Below, one piece after another: positions 1 through 11,460 of a stretch of DNA of 11,460 nucleotides. Origin of the DNA: a virus; the IMG/VR virus record IMGVR_UViG_3300035698_002205, positions 1 to 11,460 of that record; one strand, written 5' to 3'. The first letter of the stretch is position 1. Every line of letters starts with the position of its first letter. Position numbers and translations under genes: made by a program. The notes under the pieces were generated by a model. That model was not told the DNA's origin and ran no database searches. It saw only the letters and a list, made by a program, of their open reading frames with translations.

Positions 1-127
1 ATCAACATTCTGATACGTCGTCTCAGCCTGCGAACCAGCACCATCAGTAGAAACCGGGTCAACCGAGAAGTCAGTTATCGCATTGGCTAGGTCGCTCGCG
101 ACCGCCGACCCGATGTTAGTCTCGGGC
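1..127. repeat. Terminal direct repeat, identical to 11334..11460. It closes the window into an 11,333-bp circle.
   Basis: Base-by-base comparison shows atcaacattctgatacg...gttagtctcgggc at both ends. The repeat lies inside the portal reading frame. Its length of 127 equals a common maximum assembler k-mer, so an assembly overlap of a circular contig is more likely than a biological DTR. Confidence 0.95.
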
Positions 128-129
128 AT
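1..129 (-). CDS. Portal protein, first 43 codons (MPETNIGSAVASDLANAITDFF...). This is the same gene as 10353..11460 once the circle is closed.
   Basis: I extended the frame of the 10353..11258 ORF upstream by hand. It stays open through the window end and wraps to an ATG at 129..127. That ATG is preceded by AAGGAGGTTAAGGATA, with an in-frame stop at 162..160. Confidence 0.8.
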   Translation of the reverse strand, partial: MPETNIGSAVASDLANAITDFSVDPVSTDGAGSQAETTYQNVD

Positions 130-349
130 TATCCTTAACCTCCTTATCAAGCTCGAGCTTCAACTTCACAGTCTTATCAGCCTTCCTCTGCTTACAAAGA
201 GTATACTCCGAACACTTACGCAAAATCTCAGCCTTCAAAGCATCCAAGGACTCAAACCGGTCAGCATGATACACGAACTCAGGCATAGCCTTAAAATCAG
301 TCTGTACGACGAGCATACCATCACGCTCAACATAACTCTTAATTTTCAT
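116..349 (-). CDS. Hypothetical small protein, 77 aa (MKIKSYVERDGMLVVQTDFKAMPEF...)
   Basis: ORF track 116..358. I prefer the ATG at 349, which forms an ATGA overlap with the stop of the upstream gene. The 3' end overlaps the portal start by 14 nt, consistent with translational coupling. Confidence 0.7.
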   Translation of the reverse strand: MKIKSYVERDGMLVVQTDFKAMPEFVYHADRFESLDALKAEILRKCSEYTLCKQRKADKTVKLKLELDKEVKDNARD

Positions 350-723
350 TCTTCCCACCCGTAAACGCTAAAATCCCAACTCGTAGCGGAAGCAGCAGCT
401 ACCACGCTCGTTTCAAATTTCACCGGAGCATCAAACGTGAAAATCTTTTGGTTATTAGCCTCCGCACTCTTCAAACTAATCTTCGTCGTCGCATTATCCT
501 TCAACGTGCCAACAGAAACAGTCGCAGCCTCAACCCAAACGATAAACGACTTCAAATAAAAAGTCTTACCAGCAGTCACCGTAAAAATAGTTACATTCCC
601 GTCGCCAACGCTTACGCCCGTGACAGTCCCATCTTTAACCTCACTCCCCTCCTGATTCCAACGCTCTCTAAGCAAACCAGTATCCTGCTGCAAACCACCC
701 CTATCAAACAAATTCACCACCAT
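346..723 (-). CDS. Hypothetical 125-aa protein, apparently beta-rich; possible virion component
   Basis: ORF track. The ATG at 723 overlaps the nuclease gene end by 10 nt. No recognisable motif. Confidence 0.75.
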   Translation of the reverse strand: MVVNLFDRGGLQQDTGLLRERWNQEGSEVKDGTVTGVSVGDGNVTIFTVTAGKTFYLKSFIVWVEAATVSVGTLKDNATTKISLKSAEANNQKIFTFDAPVKFETSVVAAASATSWDFSVYGWEE

Positions 724-1169
724 TGATTACCCCGAAAGTAAAAACTACTTTCTGGAACCTCCCCTTCTTTTTTGGCGCCGAAAGCCGCGGCCAAGCCAAG
801 ATACACCTCTTCCTGTCCAATATCCAAGCCGGAATAAAACACTCGCCCCAAGAGCCGACCGTACTTTCCGACACGATTCATTGAATCGACGAGCACCTGC
901 ACTTCTTGACCCAATATTTTTTGTTTCAACCATTCTCTTGTCTCCTCACCACCCTCGGACAATTCCGGAGCGTCAATGTCAAGCAGCCTGAGCGGGAAGT
1001 CAAAATCCCGCCATCCAACCCTGAGGGTGACCGTGTCACCATCATGCACCTTCACCACCTCAGCGGTGAAATCCTCGGTTATTTGCACGTGCGGGGACGT
1101 GAACTGCAACTCCTCAAGCTGACGATTAGTCAACTCAGGGAACGCGTCGTAATCGTGCTCGAAAGCCAT
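714..1169 (-). CDS. Staphylococcal (micrococcal) nuclease-like thermonuclease, about 151 aa
   Basis: VVKVHDGDTVTLRV...LRLLDIDAPE...GEETREWLKQKILGQEVQV...DKYGRLLGRVF matches the SNase OB-fold signature (DGDT ... R..GIDAPE ... D.YGR.L). I trimmed the start to the ATG at 1169, which follows GAGGAGGAGG. The track start at 1232 is a TTG with no SD. Confidence 0.8.
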   Translation of the reverse strand: MAFEHDYDAFPELTNRQLEELQFTSPHVQITEDFTAEVVKVHDGDTVTLRVGWRDFDFPLRLLDIDAPELSEGGEETREWLKQKILGQEVQVLVDSMNRVGKYGRLLGRVFYSGLDIGQEEVYLGLAAAFGAKKEGEVPESSFYFRGNQWW

Positions 1170-1249
1170 GAAGCCTCCTCCTCTTGTATGAGCTGGCGCG
1201 CCCGAGCCGTTAACTGCCCATGACAGCGCCAATGAGTACGATATTTCAT

Positions 1250-1621
1250 TTATGCCTCTTGTATGAACTTCTGAACCTTCTTATCCCGCAAGATACTCAT
1301 GTTACGCAGGGCGATGTCCCGGAGCACGTTAATCATATCCTCAGCCTCAGTACGAGTCGTGAAACCACTCATATCCCAAGTGATACCCTCAATAGCAGCC
1401 AAACAAGCACCAGTATCAATCAAGATACCCCGGACAGTAGTGTTCAACGTCGTCGCGGTGTCAGCAGTACTGAAATCAAAACGGGTCATACAATTAACAA
1501 TCGCCTCCTGGTCGATAATGATACTATCAAACCAGCCAGCCGCCTTCACCGTAGCACTAGCATTAGTCCCAACTCGTAACAAAATGTCTGCATCCTGCGC
1601 GAATTGTCCAGCATTAGCCAT
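1250..1621 (-). CDS. Hypothetical 123-aa protein; possible head-completion or adaptor protein, judged by position only
   Basis: ORF track. It is the first gene after the large terminase. It has no SD and is preceded by an AT-rich promoter-like gap. Confidence 0.75.
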   Translation of the reverse strand: MANAGQFAQDADILLRVGTNASATVKAAGWFDSIIIDQEAIVNCMTRFDFSTADTATTLNTTVRGILIDTGACLAAIEGITWDMSGFTTRTEAEDMINVLRDIALRNMSILRDKKVQKFIQEA

Positions 1622-1665: not shown

Positions 1666-2904
1666 TTAAGCACAATACACGCTGAGCCCCTTATCACGCA
1701 AACACCAACAAGCCCTGACCAGCGCTTCCGTTAAGTGGGAGTAAGCGCCCATAATCCTAATCTTCTTATCAGCGGTGTACTCAAACGTGATACTCTTCAA
1801 ACTACGCAACAAGTCCAAATCGCTAATCAACTCCAACTTACCAGTCTCCATCAACATCAAAGTATGCGAATACAAATCCTCCTTAAGGATTTTGACTCTC
1901 TTCTCTTCACCCTCGACAACAACACCTTTAGAACTGTTATCCAAACCAACAACACGACGCCGACCCAACTTCTCTTGAAGTTGGTCGAGGACAGGTCCTC
2001 CCAATCCCCCACTATCAGTAAATATCCTACGGAATTTCCATTCATCGTCTATGACCCCCGTTTCGCCAACAGTCGCTGTAGTACTCACCCGCGCACGAGT
2101 AAGACACTTAACAGCCTTCAGCTTAGACTGGTGCTCCTCCACAATCACGTAAGCAACCTCATCACCACCATACCGGGCGAGGTCCTGCCCGAGATAATAA
2201 TTAGCGCCTAGTATGGCATCCTCCTTCTTGCTCCACTCAATAAAAGTCATACACTCCTTAATAAGAGTCGTCGGGAAGAACTGCTGATAATCATCAATAA
2301 ACTCACCCAAGTACTCCTGCGCATACTCAACCTTACTCATCCGGCCTTTCTCCTTCCTGAGAAAATCTGCTGGTATTCTCTTACAATCCTCCGAAGACAC
2401 GTGCCAACTACGAAAACTATCATCAGTAAACGAGTCAAAAAAGTACCCACCCTTACCAAAAGGCGTAGACAACAAGACGATGTGACCAAAACCCTTCAAC
2501 TGACGACTCACCGCAATCATCGGCGTCACCGCATTCCAAACAGTCTCAGGAATAAAAGCAGCCTCATCAGCAATCAACAAATCAATCGTGAAACCACGAA
2601 TAAAATGCCCAGTCCGACCAGTAGGCATACAATAAATCCGGGACCCATTACACAACACGATCTTAGTCATCGTCGGCTTCTCAGCCAACTCATCAGCCGC
2701 GAACCGAGCAGTCATCTTCTCAAACAACAAACTAGACTGGCGCTGACTAGCCGCAATCACCATCGTCACCGTCCCCGGATGACGACGAGCAAAATCAGAA
2801 CCCTTCTCCGAGATCACTTCACTCTTACCGACCTGCCTTCCAGTGCGCAACGTGCAATTACCCTCGTAGTCCAAGACCTCCCGCTGCCACTTATCCCACT
2901 TCAT
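1666..2904 (-). CDS. terL: Terminase large subunit, 412 aa
   Basis: Walker A is TGRQVGKS and Walker B is IDLLIADEAAF. The C-terminal RNase-H-like nuclease half carries acidic motifs (GQDLARYGGDEVAYV, IFTDSGGLGG). Confidence 0.93.
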   Translation of the reverse strand: MKWDKWQREVLDYEGNCTLRTGRQVGKSEVISEKGSDFARRHPGTVTMVIAASQRQSSLLFEKMTARFAADELAEKPTMTKIVLCNGSRIYCMPTGRTGHFIRGFTIDLLIADEAAFIPETVWNAVTPMIAVSRQLKGFGHIVLLSTPFGKGGYFFDSFTDDSFRSWHVSSEDCKRIPADFLRKEKGRMSKVEYAQEYLGEFIDDYQQFFPTTLIKECMTFIEWSKKEDAILGANYYLGQDLARYGGDEVAYVIVEEHQSKLKAVKCLTRARVSTTATVGETGVIDDEWKFRRIFTDSGGLGGPVLDQLQEKLGRRRVVGLDNSSKGVVVEGEEKRVKILKEDLYSHTLMLMETGKLELISDLDLLRSLKSITFEYTADKKIRIMGAYSHLTEALVRACWCLRDKGLSVYCA

Positions 2905-3065
2905 ATATCAGCCACCGGCTCAGGCTTCTTCGGACACTTTGAAACAAGTTCACGCATACGAACAACACCTGCCTCAACAACCTCGAGTTGAATCAGCAAC
3001 TGCACCCGCTGTCCTTTGAGTTCCTTCAACGTCAATTCATAATCATCCCTTTGCAAAATTCCCAT
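2901..3065 (-). CDS. Small coiled-coil protein, 54 aa (MGILQRDDYELTLKELKGQRVQLLIQLEVV...); candidate small terminase or packaging accessory
   Basis: The ATG at 3065 follows GGAGGT. The stop overlaps the terL ATG (ATGA). The longer track start at 3113 would run into the tRNA-like T-arm, so I rejected it. Confidence 0.6.
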   Translation of the reverse strand: MGILQRDDYELTLKELKGQRVQLLIQLEVVEAGVVRMRELVSKCPKKPEPVADI

Positions 3066-3083
3066 TTTAACTATACCTCCACA

Positions 3084-3195
3084 TGTCGGCGGCAGGATTC
3101 GAACCTGCAACATATCCTTTCAACGGATGCGGTCAATATTAAACCGTGGACACATCAACCTAGTAATCGCGGCTTTCCTCTCCGCCCTCGCCAAC
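3084..3195 (-). tRNA. tRNA-like gene, 112 nt. The acceptor stem and T-arm are canonical, but the body is about 40 nt too long, suggesting an intron or insertion, or a non-canonical tRNA-like RNA.
   Basis: Minus sense: GTTGGCG AG GGCG GAGAGGAA AGCC G ...40 nt... CATCC GUUGAAA GGAUA UGUU GCAGG UUCGAAU CCUGC CGCCGAC A. The acceptor has 7 bp (one U-G pair). The T-loop is a perfect UUCGAAU. The D-loop has GG at positions 18/19. CCA is not encoded. Confidence 0.45.
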
Positions 3196-3214: not shown

Positions 3215-3253
3215 CGACCCCAGGCTATACCCACCAACCACAACCAATCAACA

Positions 3254-3273
3254 TTCGCTCATCCACCCACTCA
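3254..3273. repeat. Left arm of the 20-bp perfect inverted repeat (ttcgctcatccacccactca)
   Basis: It is the exact reverse complement of 3578..3597. Confidence 0.95.
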
Positions 3274-3282
3274 CCCACTCAC

Positions 3283-3386
3283 TGGCGGGCGCCCACAAGC
3301 GCCCGCCGGCGAGCGAAGCGAGCCATATCCTACTTGGCGGGCGCCCACAAGCGCCCGCCGGCGAGCGAAGCGAGCCATATCCTACT
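3283..3386. repeat. Perfect tandem duplication, 2 x 52 bp (3283..3334 and 3335..3386)
   Basis: Both units read tggcgggcgcccacaagcgcccgccggcgagcgaagcgagccatatcctact. Each contains the hairpin GGCGGGCGC-CCACAA-GCGCCCGCC and one GCGAAGC. Confidence 0.97.
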
Positions 3387-3577
3387 CACGGGTCACTTGC
3401 TGGGCGTCAAGGGGATTGGGGGTTGACCCCAAGGTGCAGGTGGTAAGAGGCGAAGCCCCACCTGCCCCCCAATCACCGCCAGACGACCGGCAAGGGCGGG
3501 AAGTTAAGAGCTCCATAACTTCCCGAGCCGACAATCAGAGCCCGACGGGGGCGACAAGGCTGACCCGTGAACCTAAC

Positions 3578-3597
3578 TGAGTGGGTGGATGAGCGAA
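3578..3597. repeat. Right arm of the 20-bp perfect inverted repeat (tgagtgggtggatgagcgaa)
   Basis: It is the exact reverse complement of 3254..3273. Confidence 0.95.
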
Positions 3598-3623: not shown

Positions 3624-3848
3624 TCACCCTTCACTCAAATCATTATCAGTCAATGTGATATCAGAGCCACGATGAAACACTATCCAACCCAGCTTTTTCA
3701 AAGCGTTCTTATTGTTCCTCATGGTCTTAGGGTCAGTCCCGCACTCAAACATGATAGCCCGCTCCAACTGGAGGCGAGGAACGACCGTCATGTTCGGACA
3801 GTGCTTCCGCAACCGCCATAAGACCCGTTCCAAACGCTCAACAGTCAC
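3624..3848 (-). CDS. Small putative winged-helix DNA-binding protein, 74 aa
   Basis: ORF track with a GTG start after AGGGTGA. The ...ERAIMFECGTDPKTMRNNKNALKKLGWIV... pattern resembles the recognition helix plus wing of small wHTH regulators. The product call is by eye only. Confidence 0.6.
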   Translation of the reverse strand: MTVERLERVLWRLRKHCPNMTVVPRLQLERAIMFECGTDPKTMRNNKNALKKLGWIVFHRGSDITLTDNDLSEG

Positions 3849-3962
3849 GAATCACCCTTTTCTTCTTTGCAGGTGCAGTAGTGTCGGTGTACCCCGCATT
3901 GTCGGCAGATAGTGCTTTGTCTGCTTGGCGGGACGAACGGCTCCGCGTACCGCTTCGTCTTG

Positions 3963-4184
3963 TTATTCATCGTCTTTGTTTGCTCGTCTGACATCATCGC
4001 CTTGTACCACTATGTGATCAGTCATTTCTAGTTGCTCGAGTGTTTTCCGTACTGTTTGGTCGCTGAAACCCAGCTTCAAGCTCGTCAGTGCTATCAGCTT
4101 CTCTTTGCTAATGTTCTCTGTTGTGTTGAGAGTGTTCATTAGGAAGTCTGCCAGTGCTTTCTTTTGTTTCAAATAATCAACCAT
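3963..4184 (-). CDS. Small putative winged-helix DNA-binding protein, 73 aa
   Basis: The ATG follows GAAGGAGGCAGAATACA. ...LKLGFSDQTVRKTLEQLEMTDHIVVQGDDV... is wHTH-like. It is the first gene after the only long intergenic region. Confidence 0.65.
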   Translation of the reverse strand: MVDYLKQKKALADFLMNTLNTTENISKEKLIALTSLKLGFSDQTVRKTLEQLEMTDHIVVQGDDVRRANKDDE

Positions 4185-4282
4185 TGTATTCTGCCTCCTT
4201 CGGTGCTTTTGTTAGTCTTCTTATTTCTCTGTTGCATGCGCAGTTTATGAAGTGATTGCGGCTTTTGAACAGTATTGGGTGG

Positions 4283-4308
4283 GCGGAGATTGCATGGTCA
4301 ATCTCCGC
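4283..4308. promoter_or_regulatory. Perfect palindrome gcggagattg-catggt-caatctccgc; candidate operator or hairpin
   Basis: It has a 10-bp stem and a 6-nt loop. It lies about 100 nt upstream of the first wHTH gene. Confidence 0.45.
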
Positions 4309-4524
4309 GCGTAGTGCTGTTTGTAGATATATGTTGGCTGCTATCCCATGTTTCATAGGGGGAATGTGGGGGGAGGGGGTATTTATAGTTATGGGTCAAC
4401 TGCTTAAAACCTTTAAGCACCGATTTGAGTTTACTGATAAGAACACGAAATCCTTCCCCCCTCCCCCTCTCATATATATATAGTGCTATGCACTTTTTTA
4501 GTACTACAATACTATTAAAGTGCA

Positions 4525-4549
4525 CCCTTACCTAGAAACATCGTAAGGG
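4525..4549 (-). terminator. Hairpin (7-bp stem cccttac/gtaaggg, 11-nt loop) 15 nt downstream of the LamG gene stop; possible terminator of the late operon
   Basis: The stem is read directly from the sequence. The downstream U-tract is weak. Confidence 0.3.
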
Positions 4550-4564
4550 GAAGGGGGGAATAAG

Positions 4565-5359
4565 TCAGAAGATCGTTTTCCAATCATCACCAATGTTAAT
4601 CTGCACTCCTTCGACAGCCTTCCAACTGTCACCAATGTTAATCTTCACACCCTCGACCGTCTTCCAAGCGTCGCCGATGTTAACTTGCAAGTTCGTGCCA
4701 GCCAACGGATTTAAACCCGTCCCGCTATTCCACAACTCCGTCACCTCACTACTCGTTAAGCAACGACTCCAAATACCCATATCATCAATCAACCCTTCAA
4801 AATAATGACCACTAATAAAAGTGTCCGGAGCATTACCATTACCCACACCAGACAACAACCCGAAAGTCGTCGTCGACAAGCTACCGCTATGAGTGAAACT
4901 TCCAGCGCTCGAACCATTAACATACAAGGTAAACGTGTTACCATTCCGCGTCGCAACACAATGCACCCACGAATCAGCAGTGCTCGTCGTATACTCTACT
5001 GAACCCCACGAACTATCGTAAAATAGTAATTTCAAAGAAGTAGTATTCACGTGATCCAACACCAAAATACCACCAGCCCCGCTCGACTGGTTGCCCTTAG
5101 CAAAAACCAATCCTTCAGCATTAACATCACTCTTAAACCACACGCTAATACTAAAATCACCCGTGCCAAAAGCATAATCACCTACGGCACCATTCAAGAT
5201 ATGATCGTTCGTACCATCATAATCATAACAACCAGCACCAAGCTTTTTATTAGTCGTGTCGTGAGTCGCCCCAGTAACAGTGCCATCCTTAGCACCAACA
5301 TCATCATCAGCGTTCACATCCCAACTATAATAATTATCCAAGTCGGTAGTCAAAGCCAT
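4565..5359 (-). CDS. LamG/concanavalin-A-like lectin domain protein with C-terminal 14-aa repeats; candidate receptor-binding or adhesion protein, 264 aa
   Basis: DGT..D....G..GDFSISVWFK...WVHCVATRNGNTFTLYVNG...FEGLIDDMGIWSRCLTSSEVTELW fits the Laminin_G_3 pattern. The tail reads NIGDAWKTVEGV / NIGDSWKAVEGV / NIGDDWKTIF. Confidence 0.8.
   Translation of the reverse strand: MALTTDLDNYYSWDVNADDDVGAKDGTVTGATHDTTNKKLGAGCYDYDGTNDHILNGAVGDYAFGTGDFSISVWFKSDVNAEGLVFAKGNQSSGAGGILVLDHVNTTSLKLLFYDSSWGSVEYTTSTADSWVHCVATRNGNTFTLYVNGSSAGSFTHSGSLSTTTFGLLSGVGNGNAPDTFISGHYFEGLIDDMGIWSRCLTSSEVTELWNSGTGLNPLAGTNLQVNIGDAWKTVEGVKINIGDSWKAVEGVQINIGDDWKTIF
4577..4690 (-). repeat. About 2.7 copies of a 42-bp coding repeat (W codons at 4580, 4622 and 4664)
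   Basis: caatgttaatct.cac.cc.tcgac.g.cttccaa... recurs with a 42-bp period. It encodes (I/V)NIGDxWKx(V)EGVx. Confidence 0.85.
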
Positions 5360-5598
5360 CAGGCAACAACCTTACCATCTTTTATTTCTTTACTAATACA
5401 AGACAAGTTTTTAGCAGGGTCAGGATCATGTTTCATTTCAACAAAAACCGCTACTGGATTATCAAACTCATCGATGACTCCATTACATAGAACTTCAGCT
5501 TCTTTTTCATCCTGAACGTATTTTCTGATAATAGCCAGTGGTTTAAACTTGTTCAGCGCCGTCTCTTTTTCTCGTATCTCAAAATAAAATTCTGCCAT
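5359..5598 (-). CDS. Hypothetical 79-aa protein in an AT-rich island; possible fibre-assembly chaperone, judged by position only
   Basis: ORF track. The ATG follows GAGGT. The stop overlaps the LamG ATG (TGATG). G+C is about 36% by hand count, versus roughly 50% in the flanks. Confidence 0.65.
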   Translation of the reverse strand: MAEFYFEIREKETALNKFKPLAIIRKYVQDEKEAEVLCNGVIDEFDNPVAVFVEMKHDPDPAKNLSCISKEIKDGKVVA

Positions 5599-5607
5599 GT
5601 TGTTACC

Positions 5608-6588
5608 TCAAGCGGTGTACTGAACATAAAGAGTGCCGACAGGGAACCCACTAGCAGCGGGCGGGGTGGCGTCCGTGTTATAGAGAACCATCGGCACGTA
5701 AGCAGTATCAGCACTCGCATTATCACCAGTCAAAGTGAGCCCAACACCCACATCAGCCGCACTATTCAACAAATAATCTGAGTGGGCCTGAGTATTATCC
5801 TGCGAATGAGTATAAGCAGTATTCGACTGCGTACTCGTACCACCACTCCACGTTAGTACTCCGGTGGTCGTGTCATTAGCGTTATTCACCAAGTAGTCAC
5901 TATGAGCTTGTGAATTATCGCCAACGTGTGTAGTAGCAGCGACAATCTCATTCCACTTATCAGCACCGAGCAAGCCGGCGTTAGTTGTATCAGCCTCAAT
6001 GAGTGTGCAGTCGGTGCCATCACTACAAGCAACAATCTGAGTCGTCGCTGTGCCAGCGCCCAAGCTCAAATTAGTCGTAACATTCGTAGCCTTCGCCGTG
6101 TTCAAACCGACAGCCGTCGAAGCAGCAGCACTGTAAGAAATCTTTGCATTGTTAGCGGTGATCTGCGCAGCAGTCACCGCACTCGTCTTAACACCTTTTG
6201 CCCCGCCGTCACCCTGAACAAGGGTCTCGTCGGTGAGGTTAGCTGCAGCAGTAACATCACCACCACCAGCGGGAGCTTGCCAAGAGCAAGTCCCGTCACC
6301 ATCCTCGCGCAAGAAAAGAGCCGCACCACCCTCACCAGTACTGAGAACATCCACGCCCTCAACGGAAGCGGCCGCGCTTCCAGCATTCCCACCGGATAAG
6401 ACGCCGTCAGCGTCGTTCTTCACGAAGCCGGCACCGGTACCATCAGATAAGGTGATCTCTTTCGCACCCAACACCTTAGTCTTGATGTGCGGGTCGATGT
6501 TCTCGCGCGGATTATCAAATCCGGCGTAGCCCTGCCCGGTTTTCTTGGGAGGGGGTTTCCCGTTGAATACTTTAGAAGATAATCTCAT
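5608..6588 (-). CDS. Fibre/spike-like structural protein, about 326 aa
   Basis: The composition is Gly/Ala/Thr/Asn-rich, with a duplicated motif N(S/T)QAHSDYL(V/L)N(N/S)A and a C-terminus ...PPAASGFPVGTLYVQYTA typical of phage fibres. I trimmed the start to the ATG at 6588, 12 nt after GGAGG. The GTG at 6600 abuts the SD. Confidence 0.7.
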   Translation of the reverse strand: MRLSSKVFNGKPPPKKTGQGYAGFDNPRENIDPHIKTKVLGAKEITLSDGTGAGFVKNDADGVLSGGNAGSAAASVEGVDVLSTGEGGAALFLREDGDGTCSWQAPAGGGDVTAAANLTDETLVQGDGGAKGVKTSAVTAAQITANNAKISYSAAASTAVGLNTAKATNVTTNLSLGAGTATTQIVACSDGTDCTLIEADTTNAGLLGADKWNEIVAATTHVGDNSQAHSDYLVNNANDTTTGVLTWSGGTSTQSNTAYTHSQDNTQAHSDYLLNSAADVGVGLTLTGDNASADTAYVPMVLYNTDATPPAASGFPVGTLYVQYTA

Positions 6589-6616
6589 AGTCTGTTTCAC
6601 CCTCCACCAGTGATTT

Positions 6617-6814
6617 TTATTCGATGATGCCTTTCGCTTTCAAGTCCTCAATCAACGTGCAGAGCACATCACTCGTGACTAGTGTATCTCCGACGTTAGC
6701 GTTCAACGCCCGCGTCGTCGACACGTTAGTGGTCGTGTAAGCCCCCGTCGCCGGAAGCGTAGAGTTCATCCGAAGCTCCTTCACTTCGAGAGCTATGATC
6801 ACGTCGCGACCCAT
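6617..6814 (-). CDS. Hypothetical 65-aa protein (MGRDVIIALEVKELRMNSTLPATGAYTTTNV...)
   Basis: Track ORF 6617..6841, trimmed to the ATG at 6814. That ATG lies just downstream of the stop of the upstream mini-ORF. Confidence 0.6.
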   Translation of the reverse strand: MGRDVIIALEVKELRMNSTLPATGAYTTTNVSTTRALNANVGDTLVTSDVLCTLIEDLKAKGIIE

Positions 6815-6815
6815 C

Positions 6816-6971
6816 TTACTTCCGCCCCTTCTTCTTCTCAACCACAGGTTCTATCTGAGGCGTAGGGGTTGGGGCTGCGCCGAACTCGGCCACGAGCGAA
6901 CCATCATCCTTATTCAATCGCCCTTCAGCGACGAGCTTCTTATACATCTTTAATCGGTTCTTTTGTGACAT
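6816..6971 (-). CDS. Hypothetical 51-aa basic protein (MSQKNRLKMYKKLVAEGRLNKDDGSLVAEFGAAPTPTPQIEPVVEKKKGRK)
   Basis: Translated by hand because it is below the track cutoff. It fills an otherwise empty gap exactly and is on the same strand as all other genes. Confidence 0.5.
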   Translation of the reverse strand: MSQKNRLKMYKKLVAEGRLNKDDGSLVAEFGAAPTPTPQIEPVVEKKKGRK

Positions 6972-6976
6972 TATTA

Positions 6977-7123
6977 TCAGCTCCCTTGTAAGAATATCGC
7001 GACACCCTGACCGCCCCCATTGGGTACCATAATCAAAGTTGAAGCCGCGTTAGTGCCAAGCGCCGTGATGATACTAGCAGTGTCAGTCGCGCTCCCATTA
7101 TACAAAAGCGTTGCTGCAGCCAT
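6977..7123 (-). CDS. Hypothetical 48-aa protein (MAAATLLYNGSATDTASIITALGTNAASTLIMVPNGGGQGVAIFLQGS)
   Basis: Translated by hand. Its ATG shares one base with the capsid gene stop (TAATG). Confidence 0.5.
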   Translation of the reverse strand: MAAATLLYNGSATDTASIITALGTNAASTLIMVPNGGGQGVAIFLQGS

Positions 7124-7980
7124 TAGACACCCGTGATTTTACAGATGGCGTCAGGGTTCACAACCTGCGTCTGACCCACTTCCCAAGCCCGGATAGTGTT
7201 CTTGATGCCGGGGTCGTCGATAGTCTTGACGGTCAAGGCAACAACGCTTTTCCAAGTCAAGGCTTCCTTACCAATCACGACCTGCGCGCCACCCTCAGCA
7301 ACGCTGTTACTCACCAGCACAGTCAAGCCGAGCAGCTGGCCGAGGACACCGTTCCGCGTCGCGCCATCAGTATAAAACTGGCCAGCGTTCCGCACATTAG
7401 GATTACCCAACATTTCACTTTCTTGGTCTGGGTGAACCAGTAAGAAGCTGTTGTTGATCATCGTATAATCGTCTTTCTTGATTTCCGCCTTCGCGTCCAA
7501 GATGTCCTGAATAGGGTCCCGGTCAGCGATAATAGCGTTATCCCACGTTGCATTAGCTGCGACCGTGTTACCAGCCTCAGCGATAATCTGGGTTGCAATC
7601 TCATCATCAACACTCTTAGTTACCGCGCGCGCAATACGCAAGAGGGTGCGGGCGATCATCGGCACGTTGTTAGTGTGAATATCTTCCCACGAGAGGACGC
7701 CTTCCATAGCGTACTTTTCATTGCGCCCACTTACTTTCGTCCAGGTCACTTCTCCGTAAGGGAAGTTCGCTAGGCGTGGAACGCCTTTTACCGTGCCGCT
7801 CGTTGTCGTGTCTTGTCCGACGAGGTCAGCCTTGGTCTCGCGATAGTAAGTTTCCGTCCATGCGTTGCTTGTTTCGATCATGCAGAGTTGTTTCATTACA
7901 TACTGTTGCTGCGCGAAACCCTTCACGATGCGGCTGAAGTTCTCTGCTCGTAAGTCCTGTTCTCCTGTGGAATCTGCCAT
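7123..7980 (-). CDS. Major capsid protein, probably HK97 fold, 285 aa
   Basis: It sits directly after the scaffold and DUF2190-like genes and follows a strong SD (GGTGAGGAAAT). Its size and N-terminal pattern are typical of small-phage major capsid proteins. The call rests mainly on synteny. Confidence 0.75.
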   Translation of the reverse strand: MADSTGEQDLRAENFSRIVKGFAQQQYVMKQLCMIETSNAWTETYYRETKADLVGQDTTTSGTVKGVPRLANFPYGEVTWTKVSGRNEKYAMEGVLSWEDIHTNNVPMIARTLLRIARAVTKSVDDEIATQIIAEAGNTVAANATWDNAIIADRDPIQDILDAKAEIKKDDYTMINNSFLLVHPDQESEMLGNPNVRNAGQFYTDGATRNGVLGQLLGLTVLVSNSVAEGGAQVVIGKEALTWKSVVALTVKTIDDPGIKNTIRAWEVGQTQVVNPDAICKITGV

Positions 7981-7982
7981 TG

Positions 7983-8390
7983 TTATTTCCTCACCTTAAT
8001 CATGCCTGTTGAGCCGACGCCGATAGTTTCTAGAGCGTAGCCAACAGCCCACCCTTTTTCAACGTCGAGCGTGCTTGACAGCTCTACTCGACCATCATGC
8101 GACGTCCCAATACTGACACTGTCTCCGATCTCGCACTGTGTATCTTCACACACAACTTGAAAGATGCCGTTAGTATAAACGGCGATGCTTGTTTGTCCAT
8201 CACCCGCAACCTTCTCCGAGGCTGCGATGCCGACGACGGGCTTATCAACCGCGTCAGGTTCGATAACAGTCCGAGGACTGTTCAACTGCATGATAGTACC
8301 TTTCGGAATAGCCGTGCCATCAGCACAAGTATACCTTACCGGATCACCTTGATTACCTAAGAGTTCAACAATGATTGCTTCGTTAGCCAT
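7983..8390 (-). CDS. DUF2190-like head decoration/cement protein, 135 aa
   Basis: MANEAIIVEL...GTAIPKGTIMQL...VVGIAASEKVAGDGQTSIAVYTNGIFQVVC...IGDSVSIG... resembles the DUF2190 family, which usually sits just upstream of the major capsid protein. I trimmed the start to the ATG at 8390, after GAAGGTGAT. Confidence 0.65.
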   Translation of the reverse strand: MANEAIIVELLGNQGDPVRYTCADGTAIPKGTIMQLNSPRTVIEPDAVDKPVVGIAASEKVAGDGQTSIAVYTNGIFQVVCEDTQCEIGDSVSIGTSHDGRVELSSTLDVEKGWAVGYALETIGVGSTGMIKVRK

Positions 8391-8441
8391 GAGTAAATCA
8401 CCTTCAAGCACTGCTAGGAACTTTTGACTATTTAAACTTTG
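8391..8441 (-). promoter_or_regulatory. Gap with TTTAAATA about 38 nt upstream of the decoration-gene ATG; possible internal promoter for the capsid genes
   Basis: Minus sense reads AACAAAGTTTAAATAGTCAAAAGTTCCTAGCAGTGCTTGAAGGTGATTTACTC then ATG. Confidence 0.3.
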
Positions 8442-8771
8442 TTATTTCGGCGTTGCAGGGTCAAACATGTCCTCAAAACCAGTCCCTGCGAGGTACTTCT
8501 TAGCTTCCATGTTCGCTTTTTCTTCTGGTGTCTGTCCTTGTTTCCCAGCCGCCGCCTCGCCGCCAAGCGTGTTCTCCACTTGATCAGCCATACGCTCATC
8601 GAGCAACGACCGCGCTACAACATTCGCTTTCTCCAACCGGTCAGCCGCGGCGTTAGCCGCTGAGATTGTTTCATCAACCTTCGGGGGGGGAGTTTTCGGT
8701 TGTCCTTTCGGTTCTTCCACGGTGGGTTCTGTCCGGTCAGGTTCCACAGGGGGAGTTTTATCTTTCGCCAT
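8442..8771 (-). CDS. Putative scaffolding protein, 109 aa
   Basis: The N-terminus is Pro/Glu/Lys-rich and the core is predicted helical (AANAAADRLEKANVVARSLLDERMADQVE). It lies upstream of the decoration and capsid genes and follows the SD GGAGAGG. Confidence 0.6.
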   Translation of the reverse strand: MAKDKTPPVEPDRTEPTVEEPKGQPKTPPPKVDETISAANAAADRLEKANVVARSLLDERMADQVENTLGGEAAAGKQGQTPEEKANMEAKKYLAGTGFEDMFDPATPK

Positions 8772-8774
8772 TGT

Positions 8775-8975
8775 TTAGCCTCTCCGTTGTTGTTTACCAT
8801 AGCAATCACGGCAGTACACGGGCCACCCATCGCGTGGCTTGAATGGGACTTCACATGCCTGTTTGCAGGCCGAACAAACCGCTTCAAACAAATCAGGCGG
8901 CGGGCGTTGCGGCTCTGGCTCTTCTCTTAGATGTTGTTGGCTGGCAATCTCTTCATTACATTTCTCGCATCTCAT
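8775..8975 (-). CDS. CxxC-x17-CxxC zinc-ribbon protein, 66 aa
   Basis: CSAC-KQACEVPFKPRDGWPVY-CRDC has exactly 17 residues between the CxxC pairs and carries the CEVPFKP...RPVYC signature of the CxxC-x17-CxxC domain (TIGR04272-type). There is an extra N-terminal CEKC. The SD is GGAGGT. Confidence 0.75.
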   Translation of the reverse strand: MRCEKCNEEIASQQHLREEPEPQRPPPDLFEAVCSACKQACEVPFKPRDGWPVYCRDCYGKQQRRG

Positions 8976-8994
8976 CCTATACCTCCTACTACTC

Positions 8995-10209
8995 TTAGAG
9001 CAACCCGAATTTCAAGTTACTCGGCGCATCATAAGACCGAGACTGGCTCGGCGCTTTATAATTATTCAACGTCCTGTAATACTCGCTCCAATAATCATCA
9101 TCATCTTTAGCGCGCTTCGTCTCAGCAGGCGCCCGCTTAGCCAGTATGTCAGCCCAGTATTTCTCATCAGCGGCTCGCTCCTCAGCCTTCGCCGCCGCCT
9201 GTTGAGCTGCTACGTTAGCATAATACTCTTCGTCAGCAATCCTATTCTGTTCCTTAGCATCCGCTCGCTCTTGAGCCACCCGAGCATACATTTCAGTATC
9301 AGTCTCGCCAGTTTCTTGCTGGACTTTCAACTTCTCAATAATATCATCATTAATCTGAGCGGCTGTCACCGCACCCTTAATCTTCTGAGGAATACCCACG
9401 AGCGGGCTGACCGGACTCCACAAACCAACCTTCGACCACCAACTCATATCCAAGATTTCACTTCGCGCAGCCGTCGCCTCATCGACCAAGCTCCAATCAC
9501 CCGTTTTCTGTGCCTCAGGAATTAATGTAGAGGTTAACAAGATAGACAACGGCTCAGGCGCTTCAGCCTGCCCCCACTTACCCAAGAACACGGCGCCAGC
9601 CCAAGCACCAGCCCAAGCCATAGCCTTGGCAGTGTACTTACTCGTTAAGATGTTCTTCACACCCTGAACAGTCTTAGCACTCACAAGAGCGTTATTCGTA
9701 GTAGCAGGAACCAACTTGCCAACAGTCGTCTTACCCAAATCATCAATGGAAGCAGGCAACACCCTCTTAGCGTATTGTTTCACCAGCGCTTCGAAACCTT
9801 TCTTGCCAGCGCTTGATATAAGAGCGGGTCCCGGCGCAAGACTCTCAAAACGCAACTCCTCACCTGATACTTCACCCCCTCTTCTCTTAACAGCATCCAG
9901 ATACGACTCGCCCGCACGAGTCCTTCGAGTATCACCACCACCTACAAGATTACCAATCGACGTATCTAACAATGGTGATCCAGTCTGAGTAGGAGCCTTG
10001 TTCTGCGTGACTTGAGTAATCGCCGCGTCAGTCAATGGTGACCCACTCGGCGCGGCTTGTCGCACCGGTGACTTTTTCAAGTCGGTTCGACTCCTGCTCT
10101 CAGCACGCGTCAAGTTCTTCCCCGTCGTCGGGCTGAAGCTCTTACGCTGCGCGCCAGGAGCGTCCTTCTTCACCCTGCGATTCTGTGCATCACGATAAAC
10201 AACAGCCAT
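8995..10209 (-). CDS. Orphan 404-aa protein; possible internal virion, ejection or minor head protein
   Basis: The N-terminus is basic and contains a duplicated GSPL(T/L)D motif. There is a hydrophobic segment (AMAWAGAWAGAVFLGKW) and a C-terminal Ala/Glu/Asp-rich helical region with repeated EEYY/EKYW/DYW. It lies between the portal and scaffold genes. Confidence 0.8.
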   Translation of the reverse strand: MAVVYRDAQNRRVKKDAPGAQRKSFSPTTGKNLTRAESRSRTDLKKSPVRQAAPSGSPLTDAAITQVTQNKAPTQTGSPLLDTSIGNLVGGGDTRRTRAGESYLDAVKRRGGEVSGEELRFESLAPGPALISSAGKKGFEALVKQYAKRVLPASIDDLGKTTVGKLVPATTNNALVSAKTVQGVKNILTSKYTAKAMAWAGAWAGAVFLGKWGQAEAPEPLSILLTSTLIPEAQKTGDWSLVDEATAARSEILDMSWWSKVGLWSPVSPLVGIPQKIKGAVTAAQINDDIIEKLKVQQETGETDTEMYARVAQERADAKEQNRIADEEYYANVAAQQAAAKAEERAADEKYWADILAKRAPAETKRAKDDDDYWSEYYRTLNNYKAPSQSRSYDAPSNLKFGLL

Positions 10210-10356
10210 TTATGACCGCCTCTTCAATTCAATAGTCATCTCACGAATAGCGAGCGTGTTCGCTTTAATCGTCGTGCTACTCTGATACCACATCAACAAG
10301 AACGCCACGATAGGGAAACCAACAGTACTGATGGCAGTCAAGAGCTCATCCATCAT
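10210..10356 (-). CDS. YvrJ-like single-pass membrane mini-protein, 48 aa (MMDELLTAISTVGFPIVAFLLMWYQSSTTIKANTLAIREMTIELKRRS)
   Basis: Translated by hand. Its ATG overlaps the portal TGA (ATGA), and its TAA abuts the next ATG. The GFPI-containing TM helix followed by an amphipathic tail resembles my recollection of the YvrJ family. Confidence 0.6.
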   Translation of the reverse strand: MMDELLTAISTVGFPIVAFLLMWYQSSTTIKANTLAIREMTIELKRRS

Positions 10357-11460
10357 GTCTGACCCTCCAACTCTGAGGCTGTGTCATTCGGCTGAGCCGC
10401 GCCTTCAAGCGGCTCCTCTTCTAGTTCCGTCGCTGGAGTATCACTCACCAACTCTTGTTGCAAGCTTGCCGGGAACGTCAGCTGAATCTCAATGTTTAAC
10501 TGGCCGAGAACCTGCTCTTCTATATAGAGCTGTTCTGCTTTCACACTCTGCTCGTAAGCCAAGTAAACAATCTTACCACTAGCATCAGTGAACGCCTTCG
10601 CGTTACCCATGATGATCTGCGGGACATTCACCGCCTGAAAAAAATAATCATTCAACTGAGCAATCCACTGCAAAGGATTCAACGTCGCGTTAGGAGCCAC
10701 ACCCTTCAACTCAACCTCAACCGCCCCCTTAGGAATGTACATGTTCTCCCCAGCGCCAGTCGCCGCATCCTGCTTTGCCTTAAAAGCCGCGACCTCACCC
10801 GGGTCGTCAGTGTCTAAGTGAAAAATCCACTGCGGATAAACGCTCCGATGAAGCACTGTTTTCCAATCATTCATCGCCTCATTACGAGCGAGGATCAACC
10901 ACTGCAGGGAATCGATGATTCTCGTCCCGTGAATCTCATCAGCCACGCGATCATGACTCAAGTGGAAGATCCGCTCCGGCTTAAAACGCTTATTCGGCGT
11001 CTCAGTCTTACTGACTTGTTCGTACCGCTTGATACGACCCTGCGCGTTCTGCACGATCACCATGCTCTCAGGGTCGAGCGGCTTAAGATTGATAAGGTTC
11101 CCTTCCTTATCCCTGATCACCTCAGCAAAACTATCTTTGCTGATGGTCTTTATTTTAATCATGTTCTTAAGAAGAGAATTGAAGCTGTCCTTCCCATTAC
11201 CCTTAATGTTAGCGAGCAGCAACTGAGTAGTCTCGTCAGCCTCGAATCCCGCGCCCACCGTCCAAGTAGCCTTCGCATCAATAGCAATCTTAAACTCCGG
11301 AATCTGCTTATAAAAACCATAATCCTGCGACCAATCAACATTCTGATACGTCGTCTCAGCCTGCGAACCAGCACCATCAGTAGAAACCGGGTCAACCGAG
11401 AAGTCAGTTATCGCATTGGCTAGGTCGCTCGCGACCGCCGACCCGATGTTAGTCTCGGGC
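10353..11460 (-). CDS. Portal protein, about 369 aa in total. Within the window it is truncated by two nt at the 5' end; the ATG is at 129..127 after circularisation.
   Basis: Track ORF 10353..11258 starts at an internal GTG. The frame remains open to the window end. The size, the acidic C-terminus and the position near terL fit a small portal. Confidence 0.8.
   Translation of the reverse strand, partial: PETNIGSAVASDLANAITDFSVDPVSTDGAGSQAETTYQNVDWSQDYGFYKQIPEFKIAIDAKATWTVGAGFEADETTQLLLANIKGNGKDSFNSLLKNMIKIKTISKDSFAEVIRDKEGNLINLKPLDPESMVIVQNAQGRIKRYEQVSKTETPNKRFKPERIFHLSHDRVADEIHGTRIIDSLQWLILARNEAMNDWKTVLHRSVYPQWIFHLDTDDPGEVAAFKAKQDAATGAGENMYIPKGAVEVELKGVAPNATLNPLQWIAQLNDYFFQAVNVPQIIMGNAKAFTDASGKIVYLAYEQSVKAEQLYIEEQVLGQLNIEIQLTFPASLQQELVSDTPATELEEEPLEGAAQPNDTASELEGQT
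11334..11460. repeat. Second copy of the 127-bp terminal repeat
   Basis: Identical to 1..127. Confidence 0.95.

Follow-up and report, generated by a model that had tools for sequence, protein, structure and literature searches.

The window analysed here is the whole stretch of 11,460 nt. Its first and last 127 nt are identical (positions 1–127 are repeated at 11334–11460, with the junction inside the portal ORF), giving a unit of 11,333 bp; the closure had been described in an earlier note on this DNA, and the exact identity of the ends confirms it. All 23 plausible genes of the genome, against the 24 products of the earlier count, are carried on the minus strand, as are the promoter elements described below.

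The portal gene g01 runs across the circle junction (10353–11460 and 1–129) and matches the Pfam families Portal_Mu, above its cutoff, and Phage_portal, together with PHROG 9232 (6e-14). Translation probably begins at the ATG at 129; the longest ORF opens with a TTG at 150. Homologues occur in 63 of the 78 related IMG/VR loci described below, and it has no match among 50,697 deposited phage and virus records. The major capsid protein (MCP) g07 (285 aa, 7123–7980) is of the HK97 type, matching Phage_capsid_4 (2e-12) and PHROG 1650 (5e-20). In the same deposited records it has only weak matches, with 24–28% identity across no more than 67% of its length, the nearest being from Bacillus phages. 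The cement or decoration protein g06 (135–142 aa; 7983–8390, with a likely ATG start at 8390 and an ORF reaching 8411) scores just under the cutoff for Pfam Phage_cement_2 (2e-4, 22.1 bits against 24), and 74 of the 78 loci have a homologue. The large terminase subunit (TerL) g19 (412 aa, 1666–2904) matches Terminase_6N (6e-12) and, over residues 4–400, PHROG_2 (4e-39). Its best deposited relative is from Halogranum tailed virus 1 (HGTV-1; 30% identity, 98% coverage, 5e-40). These four assignments, made previously from sequence alone, are thus borne out by family matches. Two further proteins belong with this group. The scaffold-like g05 (109 aa, 8442–8771) has no family match in Pfam or PHROG; it is named from position and composition, is flanked in 33 loci by the portal module on one side and the cement gene on the other, and is homologous to cluster c9. 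The coiled-coil protein g18 (2901–3065; 54 aa from its second ATG, which is preceded by GGAGGT) overlaps the start of TerL, is found in 6 loci, and may be a small-terminase-like partner.

The MCP gene is followed by three small proteins, g08 (48 aa), g09 (51 aa) and g10 (65–74 aa), at 6617–7123. The N-termini of g10 and of fibre-like proteins in relatives share the motif ALEVKEL, and hhalign comparisons of g10 with clusters c28, c19 and c21 give probabilities of 23–71% over about 20 residues. Next comes g11 (330 aa, 5608–6600), a Gly/Thr/Ala-rich protein with a repeated QAHSDYL motif, which is called fibre-like from its composition, position and repeats; it has homologues of varying length in 46 loci and no match in Pfam, PHROG or PDB. 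The orphan g12 (79 aa, 5359–5598) has no homologue in related loci. It is followed by g13 (264 aa, 4565–5359), a LamG (concanavalin-like) adhesin matching Laminin_G_3 (4e-22), with NIGDxWK repeats at the C-terminus and homology to cluster c7. The earlier suggestion of a scaffold and two adhesin or fibre-like proteins therefore holds for the LamG protein by family match, while scaffold and fibre are assigned by position, composition and repeats only. Across the family, the receptor-binding region 3′ of the MCP is hypervariable and includes LamG, F5/8-C, CBM5/12, C1q and sialidase-N domains, which fits a virus that recognises its hosts itself.

Directly after the portal, here and in 14 loci, is g02 (48 aa, 10210–10356), a membrane protein with one transmembrane helix that matches PHROG 4898 'holin' (1.5e-7), which is modest evidence that it is a holin. 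The earlier statement that lysis genes are lacking is correct for an endolysin, but it missed this holin-like gene. The protein g21 (714–1169, about 151 aa from an internal ATG, with an ORF to 1232) is a nuclease of the staphylococcal nuclease family (Pfam SNase, 8e-9; PHROG 452 endonuclease, 3e-15) found in 29 loci. At 151–172 aa it contradicts, as does the cement protein, the description of all other genes as shorter than 130 aa bar one orphan of 404 aa. That orphan, g03 (8995–10209), is a candidate internal, pilot or ejection protein. In two alignments (A4 and A7) its N-terminal half is basic and disordered and its C-terminal half helical, with a hydrophobic glycine-zipper segment and a near-invariant C-terminal motif, PSNLxFGLL. 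In the AlphaFold model, pLDDT is below 50 for residues 1–173, and residues 175–390 form helices with pLDDT up to 96. It is homologous to clusters c3 and c11 of distant relatives, and has no match in Pfam, PHROG, PDB or Foldseek searches.

The most conserved small gene is g20 (123 aa, 1250–1621), whose homologues form 399 clusters. It is predicted to be all-alpha, with seven helices (pLDDT 78, pTM 0.72). Foldseek against PDB returned nothing, and the best BFVD match is an unnamed protein (A0A0C5K877, E 7e-3, TM 0.72). By its position it is a candidate head-completion or adaptor protein. The structure prediction and Foldseek searches proposed in the earlier note thus leave both the 123-aa and the 404-aa orphan without an assignment. 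Between nuclease and portal (116–723) are g22 (125 aa, beta-rich) and g23 (80 aa), neither with a significant match in Pfam, PHROG or PDB; the g22 family comprises 164 clusters at 50% identity, nearly all of them stand-alone proteins of 115–135 aa. The 66-aa g04 (8775–8975) is a treble-clef zinc finger, CxxC-x17-CxxC (Pfam zf_Tbcl_2, 4.5e-15; TIGR04272 cxxc_cxxc_Mbark, 4e-15). Finally, a variable 'early' module (3624–4356) holds g14 (59 aa), g15 (73 aa, a probable winged helix), the Cys-rich g16 (50 aa) and g17 (74 aa). The last is a family-conserved winged-helix protein with homologues in 21 loci, and its family weakly matches HTH_36, HTH_11 and Crp. No homologues of g14–g16 occur in relatives, and their slot is where 15 relatives hold a conserved protein of about 265 aa, c1.

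Upstream of the terminase genes is a structured, GC-rich non-coding element of 344 bp (3254–3597), bounded by a perfect 20-nt inverted repeat (3254–3273 and 3578–3597). It contains a perfect 52-nt tandem duplication (3283–3386) and a conserved core motif (3414–3474), and its folding z-scores are -7.9 and -11.2. The same architecture is found in relatives L002, L010, L020 and L044. In ten genomes, 147 of 150 pairs in the core motif are Watson–Crick, with several pair types per position and no G–T wobble. The element, supported by this covariation, is a candidate origin of replication, packaging site, or both. Close by, a tRNA-like element (3084–3151, minus strand) overlaps the 5′ end of the longest g18 ORF. 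It has a perfect T-arm (GCAGG-TTCGAAT-CCTGC) and five of seven acceptor pairs, and scores 25.5 bits against the Rfam tRNA gathering score of 29 (E 0.099); ARAGORN finds nothing here. It is also present in the distant relatives L068, L072 and L077.

More than 400 related contigs were found; those encoding the MCP come from 78 IMG/VR loci, 333 JGI contigs and 7 GTDB contigs. The samples are aquatic and sediment, and the family is globally distributed, large and apparently undescribed. Gene order is kept down to 33% MCP identity. The window could in principle be a collapsed fragment or chimera of a larger genome, since its 127-nt overlap is a common assembler k-mer and three related contigs of 20–25 kb exist (L051, L086 and L110). 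We consider this extremely unlikely. The family includes 13 distinct closed units of 10,818–12,084 bp, independently closed in different samples, by different assemblers and at different break points, and all with the same gene order. The 20–25-kb contigs each consist of two non-identical units head to tail; in L110 a 160-nt segment of 95% identity is common to both units at matching positions, which fits a figure-of-eight assembly path. The longest single-unit contig among the 80 best related JGI contigs listed is 12.7 kb. The end overlaps of relatives are exactly 127 nt in six cases and 99, 91, 119 or 123 nt in others. Since 127 nt is a common k-mer length, the overlap shows that the assembly path closes on itself, as for a circle or a permuted concatemer, and not that there is a biological terminal repeat. 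The exact closure and the closed relatives support the earlier view that this is a complete miniature genome.

Promoter motifs were analysed in 316 unique upstream regions of the family. The motif TTTAWATA peaks at -28 from the ATG: the 4-nt bin there holds 38 sites, the -40 bin 24, and most of the remaining bins roughly 2–13. Just upstream of the box, which stands about 27 nt before start codons, is an A-rich, cRAAA-like stretch (BRE), and a Shine–Dalgarno sequence is missing from 41 of the 46 genes preceded by TTTAWATA. This arrangement speaks for archaeal hosts; in bacteria, the -10 box of a leaderless gene would be about 10 nt from the start codon. With only 25 genes, the bacterial control used for the scan was underpowered. 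The window holds three such sites. One is the TATA box TTTAAATA (8429–8436), with an A-rich BRE upstream, assigned as the promoter of the cement–MCP operon; the box is also present upstream of g06 homologues in L042, L044, L063, L068, L072 and L076. The second lies in an intergenic control region (4357–4564) that contains G-tract/C-tract inverted repeats, a hairpin and TATATATATA; its TATA box TATAAATA (4380–4387) is 27 nt before the ATG of g14, which has no Shine–Dalgarno sequence. The third is a TATA-like box TTTTTATA (1649–1656), 31 nt before the ATG of g20, and L005 and L034 have TTTATATA at about -27 before the g20 homologue. Throughout the family, promoter signals follow the archaeal BRE/TATA pattern, and the genes behind them are often leaderless.

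A minimal bacteriophage, infecting for instance ultra-small Patescibacteria (CPR), would account for several other observations. Shine–Dalgarno motifs precede many internal genes, the holin-like match of g02 and the nearest deposited relatives of the MCP are from Bacillus phages, and the CxxC-x17-CxxC zinc finger of g04 is a type that occurs in bacteria too. Moreover, two of the seven MAG-binned relatives are in bacterial bins, one with Paceibacterota (11,986 bp) and one with Spirochaetales. The other five are in archaeal bins, the best TerL relative is a haloarchaeal virus, and scans for sigma-70 promoters and intrinsic terminators gave results near shuffle expectation. With the BRE/TATA arrangement, these make a bacterial host improbable. 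The promoter motifs, the weak binning and the TerL relationship indicate that the host is probably an archaeon.

Searches of Pfam, PHROGs and NCBIfam found no polymerase, primase, helicase, Rep, integrase, endolysin, tape measure, tube or sheath in the window, and the family pan-genome likewise has no polymerase, primase, helicase, Rep, integrase, lysin or tail-tube gene. The earlier observation that replication, integration and tail genes are not recognisable is therefore upheld for both. No tail, adaptor, nozzle or tube protein was identified, even when g20 and g03 were modelled with AlphaFold and compared by Foldseek. Nor was a replication initiator recognised, the best candidate of the family, c1, being absent from this genome. 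These absences would suit a capsid-forming satellite, which makes its own small capsid and packages itself while a co-infecting helper virus provides tails, replication or both, in the manner of capsid-forming PICIs (cf-PICIs) or of P4 in reverse. The size is within the P4/PICI range, and the tRNA-like element could be a remnant of an attachment site. We nevertheless regard a satellite as unlikely. There is no integrase, the search for integrated copies suggested in the earlier note found none in 185,579 species genomes, and every genome-derived contig is at most 12 kb, whereas to our knowledge all described capsid-forming satellites reside in the chromosome. The hypervariable adhesins and the holin-like gene would be needless for an element that borrows tails. 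The family is also abundant and diverse alone, with its 399 g20 clusters and 333 JGI contigs, and no helper candidate is known. The same absences could indicate a non-infectious element: GTA-like, defective, or a plasmid with a captured head module. This is very unlikely, because the genome is extrachromosomal, self-contained and conserved in size, with its own TerL, and the marked diversity of its sequences and the diversification of its adhesins are what an evolving infectious agent typically shows. GTAs, moreover, are chromosomal and package host DNA.

The closest known systems each resemble this genome in part. HGTV-1, an archaeal member of the Caudoviricetes, shares an HK97-type MCP, portal and TerL, as well as archaeal-type promoters and many small winged-helix and zinc-finger proteins; however, it is 144 kb long with a contractile tail and its own replication genes, modules not recognisable here. 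Like Salmonella phage Astrid and the satellite P4 (11.6 kb), and the phi29-like Picovirinae (about 19 kb), this genome is at the lower size limit for a virus with capsid, portal and packaging ATPase, and a small capsid (T=3 or T=4) is expected. Those viruses all have bacterial hosts. Picovirinae encode a protein-primed DNA polymerase, terminal protein, tail knob, collar and lysin, and P4, which lacks capsid genes, has an integrase and a primase; the searches found none of these functions here. The cf-PICIs are 10–15-kb elements with their own TerL, portal and MCP and no tail genes. They are integrated, bacterial elements that carry an integrase, regulators and a primase-replicase and borrow helper tails, whereas the present family has no integrase or integrated copies and has its own adhesins and a holin-like gene. 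The 'twilight-zone' mini HK97 genomes are likewise metagenomic, DTR-closed, below 11.6 kb and with an HK97-fold MCP, and tail genes can be detected in few of them (4.3%; Aguilar et al., 2025, bioRxiv 10.1101/2025.06.18.659913). The group described in that study consists of temperate genomes of about 8.9 kb from human gut that encode an integrase together with RepA or a helicase, have encapsulin-like MCPs, and possess neither portal nor terminase. Our family, in contrast, has portal and TerL, lacks integrase and Rep, is aquatic or sediment-derived and looks archaeal. The genome had been placed at or below the known size floor. It is indeed just under the smallest isolates (11.6 kb; Aguilar et al., 2025), but it is typical of its 10.8–12.1-kb family and not exceptional among metagenomic sequences. 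The same study counts 4,730 tailed-phage-like, DTR-bounded genomes of less than 11.6 kb in IMG/VR.

We conclude, with a probability of roughly 0.55, that the window holds the whole genome of a miniature virus that is uncultivated and autonomous, has an HK97-type capsid, portal and terminase (Duplodnaviria, Caudoviricetes-like), and most likely infects an archaeon. Autonomy is favoured by the virus's own hypervariable adhesins, the holin-like gene, and the lack of any integrase or integrated copy in the family. Three readings had been offered earlier, and the evidence favours a mixture of two of them, namely a minimal virus relying on host replication and one with unrecognisable neck, entry and initiator proteins; the third, a satellite, is weakened by the adhesins and the missing integrase. 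A complete infection apparatus within 11.3 kb is assumed here. The host replisome would copy the genome after being brought, perhaps by the neighbouring winged-helix protein g17, to the inverted-repeat-bounded element that precedes the terminase genes. TerL would then cut concatemers and package them into the small capsid. The neck and entry device would be built from the family-specific g20, g22, g23, g10 and g03 (the last with a transmembrane segment), which current profiles and structure libraries would miss, and release would be via the holin-like g02.

The first 127 nt of the window are exactly the same as its last 127 nt, and it closes to a unit of 11,333 bp with a G+C content of 49.6%. 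ORFs were called on the circularised sequence, which gave 23 plausible genes (g01 to g23) on the minus strand, covering 91% of the unit. The circle junction lies within the portal ORF, as proposed in the earlier note. Searches with the major capsid protein (MCP) matched 78 loci in IMG/VR, 333 contigs in JGI metagenomes and 7 contigs among 185,579 species-representative genomes, while homologues of the small protein g20 form 399 clusters at 90% identity. Thirteen distinct relatives are self-closing, with unit sizes of 10,818–12,084 bp and different break points. Their terminal overlaps (45–127 nt) match common assembler k-mers, and so point to an assembly path that is circular, not to a terminal repeat of biological origin.

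Gene order is kept in relatives down to about 33% MCP identity. It runs from the large terminase (TerL) through g20, a nuclease, g22/g23 (or alternatives), the portal, a small membrane protein and a g03-like protein to a zinc finger, the scaffold, cement and MCP genes, small proteins, fibre/adhesins, small regulators and a non-coding region. Three longer contigs, L051 (21.4 kb), L086 (25.2 kb) and L110 (20.5 kb), each consist of two different related units arranged head to tail. The two units of L110 are 67–69% identical in nucleotide sequence, and carry at corresponding positions a 160-nt segment with 95% identity. The most likely origin of such doubles is an assembly path that traced a figure of eight through co-occurring strains; real heteroconcatemers are the less probable explanation. 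The possibility of a collapsed fragment of a larger genome, raised in the earlier note, fails on three counts, namely the 13 closures, the conserved order, and the fact that the 20–25-kb contigs hold two units each, as in a figure-of-eight path. The genome in the window is complete and typical of its family, which is large.

The proteins that define a virus of the Duplodnaviria/Caudoviricetes type, namely an MCP, a portal and a large terminase, are all present in the window. TerL (g19) matches Terminase_6N in Pfam (6e-12) and PHROG_2 (4e-39, over residues 4–400), and aligns over its full length with the TerL of HGTV-1. The portal (g01) matches Portal_Mu above the Pfam cutoff and PHROG 9232 (6e-14). 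The MCP (g07) matches Phage_capsid_4 above the Pfam cutoff (2e-12), PHROG 1650 (5e-20) and NCBIfam capsid_Caudo_1 (5.5e-7), and is predicted from these matches to have the HK97 fold. The cement or decoration protein (g06) matches Phage_cement_2 at 2e-4, slightly under the cutoff. These four assignments agree with those made originally. Comparison with 50,697 deposited phage and virus genomes gave only weak relatives for the MCP and none for the portal. The two adhesin- or fibre-like proteins described earlier fared differently: a LamG domain was identified in the 264-aa protein g13 (4e-22), while the 330-aa fibre (g11) has no family match and is assigned by position and composition only. The same applies to the 109-aa scaffold (g05).

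Three more genes have family matches. The product of g21 (about 151 aa) is a nuclease of the SNase family (Pfam 8e-9; PHROG 452 3e-15), g02, the gene that immediately follows the portal, encodes a 48-aa membrane protein with a single pass (PHROG 4898 'holin', 1.5e-7), and the 66-aa protein g04 is a CxxC-x17-CxxC treble-clef zinc finger. The nuclease and the holin-like protein had been overlooked originally; the original statement that no replication, integration or tail-tube genes can be recognised is confirmed. Pfam, PHROGs and NCBIfam revealed no polymerase, primase, helicase, Rep, integrase, endolysin, tube, sheath or tape measure in the window, and searches of all the small ORFs and four plus-strand ORFs against the same databases gave only weak winged-helix hints and the holin match. 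Of tail-related proteins, the window contains the fibre-like and LamG proteins; profiles from Pfam, PHROG, NCBIfam and the PDB showed no adaptor, tube, nozzle, sheath or tape measure, and AlphaFold with Foldseek, applied to g20 and g03, showed no tail part either.

The survey was extended to the family by clustering those ORFs of 90 aa or longer, from the 78 IMG/VR loci, that match no window protein, and searching 74 cluster representatives against Pfam. This identified two C5 methylases, one RNase T/DnaQ-type exonuclease, one HNH nuclease, several winged-helix regulators, and adhesin domains of the LamG, F5/8 type C, CBM5/12, C1q and sialidase N-terminal types. No integrase, Rep, polymerase, primase, helicase, lysin or tail-tube family was found among the 74 representatives. 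The lack of recognisable replication, integration and tail-tube genes noted for the window extends to the family, in which Pfam recognises no tail or replication module in either the window or the representatives. Nor was an integrated copy seen, since all 7 contigs among the 185,579 species genomes are free and never exceed 12 kb.

These results bear on possible dependence on a helper. The cf-PICIs carry an integrase and reside in the chromosome, whereas neither feature was found here, in the window, the 74 family representatives or the 185,579 species genomes. The missing recognisable tail genes are compatible with a helper that supplies tails; the adhesins and the holin-like gene argue against it. 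The window also differs from the phi29-like Picovirinae, as neither their protein-primed family-B DNA polymerase nor their terminal protein was found in it.

Several conserved proteins are orphans. The most conserved small protein of the family is g20 (123 aa), for which AlphaFold predicts a seven-helix bundle (pLDDT 78, pTM 0.72). Foldseek found no match to this model in the PDB and one in BFVD, to an unnamed viral protein (E 7e-3, TM 0.72). The 404-aa protein g03 begins with a basic region of 170 residues that is disordered in the AlphaFold model, and continues through a hydrophobic glycine-zipper segment into a C-terminal half that is modelled with confidence as helical. The large protein that follows the portal in distant relatives is a homologue of g03, which evolves fast except at its extreme C-terminus (window 8995–9021), where g03 and its homologues carry a near-invariant PSNLxFGLL sequence. 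Neither Foldseek against the PDB nor a PDB profile search gave a match, so that the 404-aa protein keeps its orphan status. Based on its position, its membrane segment and the docking-like conserved C-terminal motif, g03 may be an internal, pilot or ejection protein. The motif may resemble bacterial sliding-clamp-binding peptides, and a clamp-binding role was considered and set aside. At the C-terminus of the scaffold-like g05 and its relatives is a comparable sequence of the type G(T/L)G(F/L)xPF, and the two C-terminal motifs may dock into one shared site on the capsid or portal.

The beta-rich g22 (125 aa) was matched to 3 proteins in a word-index search and to 164 clusters at 50% identity in an exhaustive search. 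Nearly all of these stand alone and are of similar size, and the exhaustive search gave no link to larger annotated proteins. A profile search against PDB sequences produced no significant structural relative for g22, the hit to the P22 coat protein I-domain (E 0.16) being a lead only. The profiles of g20, g03, g17 and the ORF clusters c0 and c1 of the relatives likewise gave nothing significant. Structure prediction and Foldseek had been put forward as a way to recognise hidden functions, and for the 404-aa and 123-aa proteins no tail, replication or lysis identity emerged. Neck, tail and entry proteins, if they exist, escape recognition by the profile and structure searches used.

The cluster c1 is a conserved protein of about 265 aa, present in 15 relatives including the nearest (L001 5424–6227, L087 9543–10340, L020 3210–4001 and 12 others). 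It starts with a winged helix, carries the invariant motifs DWNFHN, IEFNKDYSNLRLDG and FKxYQK...R.EHKTK, has no relative in Pfam or the PDB, and is the family's best candidate for a novel replication initiator. It is absent from the window, where its slot (3845–4356) is filled by three unique small genes, g14–g16. A separate observation concerns a peptide of about 20 aa, (D)VIPALxVKEL, which is found at the N-terminus of g10 (window 6617–6814) and of fibre-like proteins of L012/L014, L015, L017 and L024. The proteins that it heads are otherwise unrelated fibres or adhesins, and it may be an exchangeable virion-anchoring module.

The non-coding stretch between g17 and g18/TerL is 510 nt long and GC-rich (62%). 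Within it is a structured element (3254–3597), in which a perfect 20-nt inverted repeat (3254–3273 and 3578–3597) encloses 304 nt containing nested shorter inverted repeats. There is also a perfect 52-nt tandem duplication at 3283–3386, each copy of which carries a GC-rich hairpin (GGCGGGCGC...GCGCCCGCC). Because the 52-nt repeat has no copy in relatives or elsewhere in IMG/VR, the duplication within this cis element is probably recent. The element is predicted to fold much more stably than shuffled sequence, whichever strand is taken (z-scores −7.9 and −11.2). Perfect inverted repeats of 19–21 nt occur at the same place in four relatives (L002 7606–7977, L010 21–309, L020 4597–4830 and L044 152–482), although they are unrelated in sequence; they lie 196–330 nt apart and their interiors are again highly structured (z −5 to −11). 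By a rough estimate, about 1e-5 such repeats are expected by chance per genome.

A core motif, located at 3414–3474 in the window, is common to at least 10 genomes. Its layout is P1 - A - P2 hairpin - CACC... - (C/U)AA - P1', with the loop GCUWCGCUCUWA or AUAAC. Pairs were tallied on a hand-parsed alignment, MAFFT having failed to place the motif in register; in ten genomes 147 of 150 stem pairs are Watson–Crick and there are no G-T pairs. Most pair positions show two to four pair types, and this covariation implies that the pairing is under selection. A loose descriptor search for the motif was noisy, with 30 matches on the forward strand, 11 on the reverse strand and 16 in shuffled sequence. 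The absence of any wobble pair suggests pairing that acts at the DNA level or on both strands. As the pairing is under selection without any wobble, the structured element is a candidate origin of replication and/or packaging initiation site, and the adjoining gene g17, which encodes a conserved winged-helix protein, may provide the protein that binds it.

Other roles for the element were considered. In phi29-like viruses packaging depends on a pRNA. Here the motor is a terminase with a T4-type N-domain, the element has no match in Rfam, to pRNA or otherwise, and the zero count of G-U pairs argues against an RNA role; a phi29-like packaging RNA was therefore rejected. A mobile MITE is not supported, as neither the 20-nt arm nor the hairpin of the 52-nt repeat has another copy in IMG/VR. 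An invertible promoter was rejected because there is no recombinase and the interior itself has multiple hairpins.

Close by is a tRNA-like element (window 3084–3151, minus strand), which is also found in three distant relatives (MCP about 34% identical) at L072 9269–9333, L077 1591–1650 and 1783–1847, and L068 11193–11263, and is absent from close relatives. All of these elements share the same T-arm (GCAGGTTCGAATCCTGC) and have an acceptor stem that is paired, but their D and anticodon arms are truncated or absent. They score 25–27 bits against the Rfam tRNA threshold of 29, and ARAGORN made no call. The element may be what is left of an attachment site, a signal for processing or a mimic of tRNA. 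Because the window copy overlaps the longest g18 ORF at that ORF's 5' end, g18 probably starts at the second ATG (3065).

The host was addressed by a promoter scan of 316 unique regions upstream of family genes that follow an intergenic gap, using TTTAWATA with at most 1 mismatch. There is a peak at −28 from the ATG (38 matches in a 4-nt bin, compared with about 2–13 in most other bins), and a second peak of 24 matches at −40, for genes with a short leader carrying a Shine–Dalgarno sequence. Positions −5 to −3 upstream of the box are A in 30–35 of 46 cases, which is BRE-like, and 41 of the 46 TATA-box genes lack a Shine–Dalgarno-like 4-mer. A BRE/TATA about 27 nt before a leaderless start codon is the textbook archaeal promoter, while a bacterial leaderless gene is expected to have a −10 box about 10 nt upstream. 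The archaeal arrangement, at about −27 with leaderless first genes, is found both in the family and in the window. Window sites, all on the minus strand, are TTTAAATA (8429–8436) before the cement–MCP operon, with an identical box at the same operon in six relatives, TATAAATA (4380–4387), 27 nt before the ATG of g14, which is without a Shine–Dalgarno sequence, and TTTTTATA (1649–1656) before g20. The bacterial control was Bacillus phage Finn alone, which with 25 usable genes was underpowered. A scan for sigma-70 promoters and terminators gave numbers near the shuffle expectation.

The nearest deposited relative of TerL is from a haloarchaeal virus. In metagenome-assembled genomes, five of seven contigs lie in archaeal bins (two Methanosarcinales, one Pacearchaeota, one Nanoarchaeota and one unclassified 'archaeon') and two in bacterial bins. 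The host is probably archaeal. The G+C content of the window (49.6%) compares with a family median of 38.4% (range 29.8–53.1%), which hints that its host differs from that of most relatives. L079, a fragment in a Methanosarcinales bin whose MCP is 80% identical to that of the window, is among the few other high-GC members (50.9%); this match is a lead only, because binning draws on composition. GC skew, otherwise uniform across the window genome, changes sign solely at 4000–4600. The intergenic region after the LamG gene (4357–4564) contains complementary G- and C-tracts (GGGGGAGGGGG and CCCCCTCCCCC), a hairpin and a run of TATATATATA.

Small size alone is not new, since genomes below 11.6 kb, the size of the smallest isolates, are frequent in IMG/VR: 4,730 have DTRs, 536 of them with an MCP (Aguilar et al., 2025, bioRxiv 10.1101/2025.06.18.659913). 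The 'twilight' mini viruses of that survey are temperate, lack a portal and terminase and have an encapsulin-like MCP. The window, in contrast, has a portal and TerL, has no integrase, and its MCP matches Phage_capsid_4 and not encapsulin families. No description of the window's family was found in the searchable literature; papers on nanohaloarchaeal viruses, methanogen viruses and the 4.6-kb Charybdis elements deal with different entities. The window works like the head module of a tailed virus with a minimal periphery.

A possible life cycle can be outlined. The genome specifies procapsid parts (portal, scaffold-like protein, MCP and cement), a packaging ATPase-nuclease, adhesins, a nuclease, a holin-like protein and DNA-binding regulators, which are predicted to be expressed from archaeal-type promoters. 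The structured element would be the point at which host replisome proteins start to copy the genome, and TerL would package concatemers, with g17 and/or g18 as recognition subunit. With the density of packaged DNA taken as about 0.46 bp per nm3, we calculate that a capsid about 36 nm across on the inside would be needed for 11.3 kb. A T=3 or T=4 capsid would be expected from this, as in P4, which packages 11.6 kb (Aguilar et al., 2025). The proteins g20, g22, g23, g10 and g03 might form a minimal neck and entry device, the fibres g11 and g13 would attach to the host, g02 would aid release, and the nuclease could degrade host DNA or process replication intermediates.

We put at roughly three in ten the chance that the family is an undescribed lineage, at family level or higher, of the smallest archaeal duplodnaviruses, possibly in ultra-small DPANN or Methanosarcinales, with a portal and fibres, no conventional tail and no replication protein of its own, copied entirely by the host from a conserved DNA origin bounded by inverted repeats. 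The cis element beside the terminase genes is a concrete candidate for the recruitment of host replication or the start of packaging. g20, g22, g03 and c1 have many members and no detectable relatives of known function or structure, and are therefore suitable targets for structural work on minimal neck and entry structures. If this tentative reading is true, the family would in effect define the minimal gene set for a virus with a packaging motor, and would place the practical floor for a portal/terminase/HK97 virus at about 20 genes and 11 kb, with machinery that can run without a recognisable tail or replication module. The archaeal virosphere would then include head-type viruses of very small size, which are common in metagenomes from marine, saline and sediment sources.
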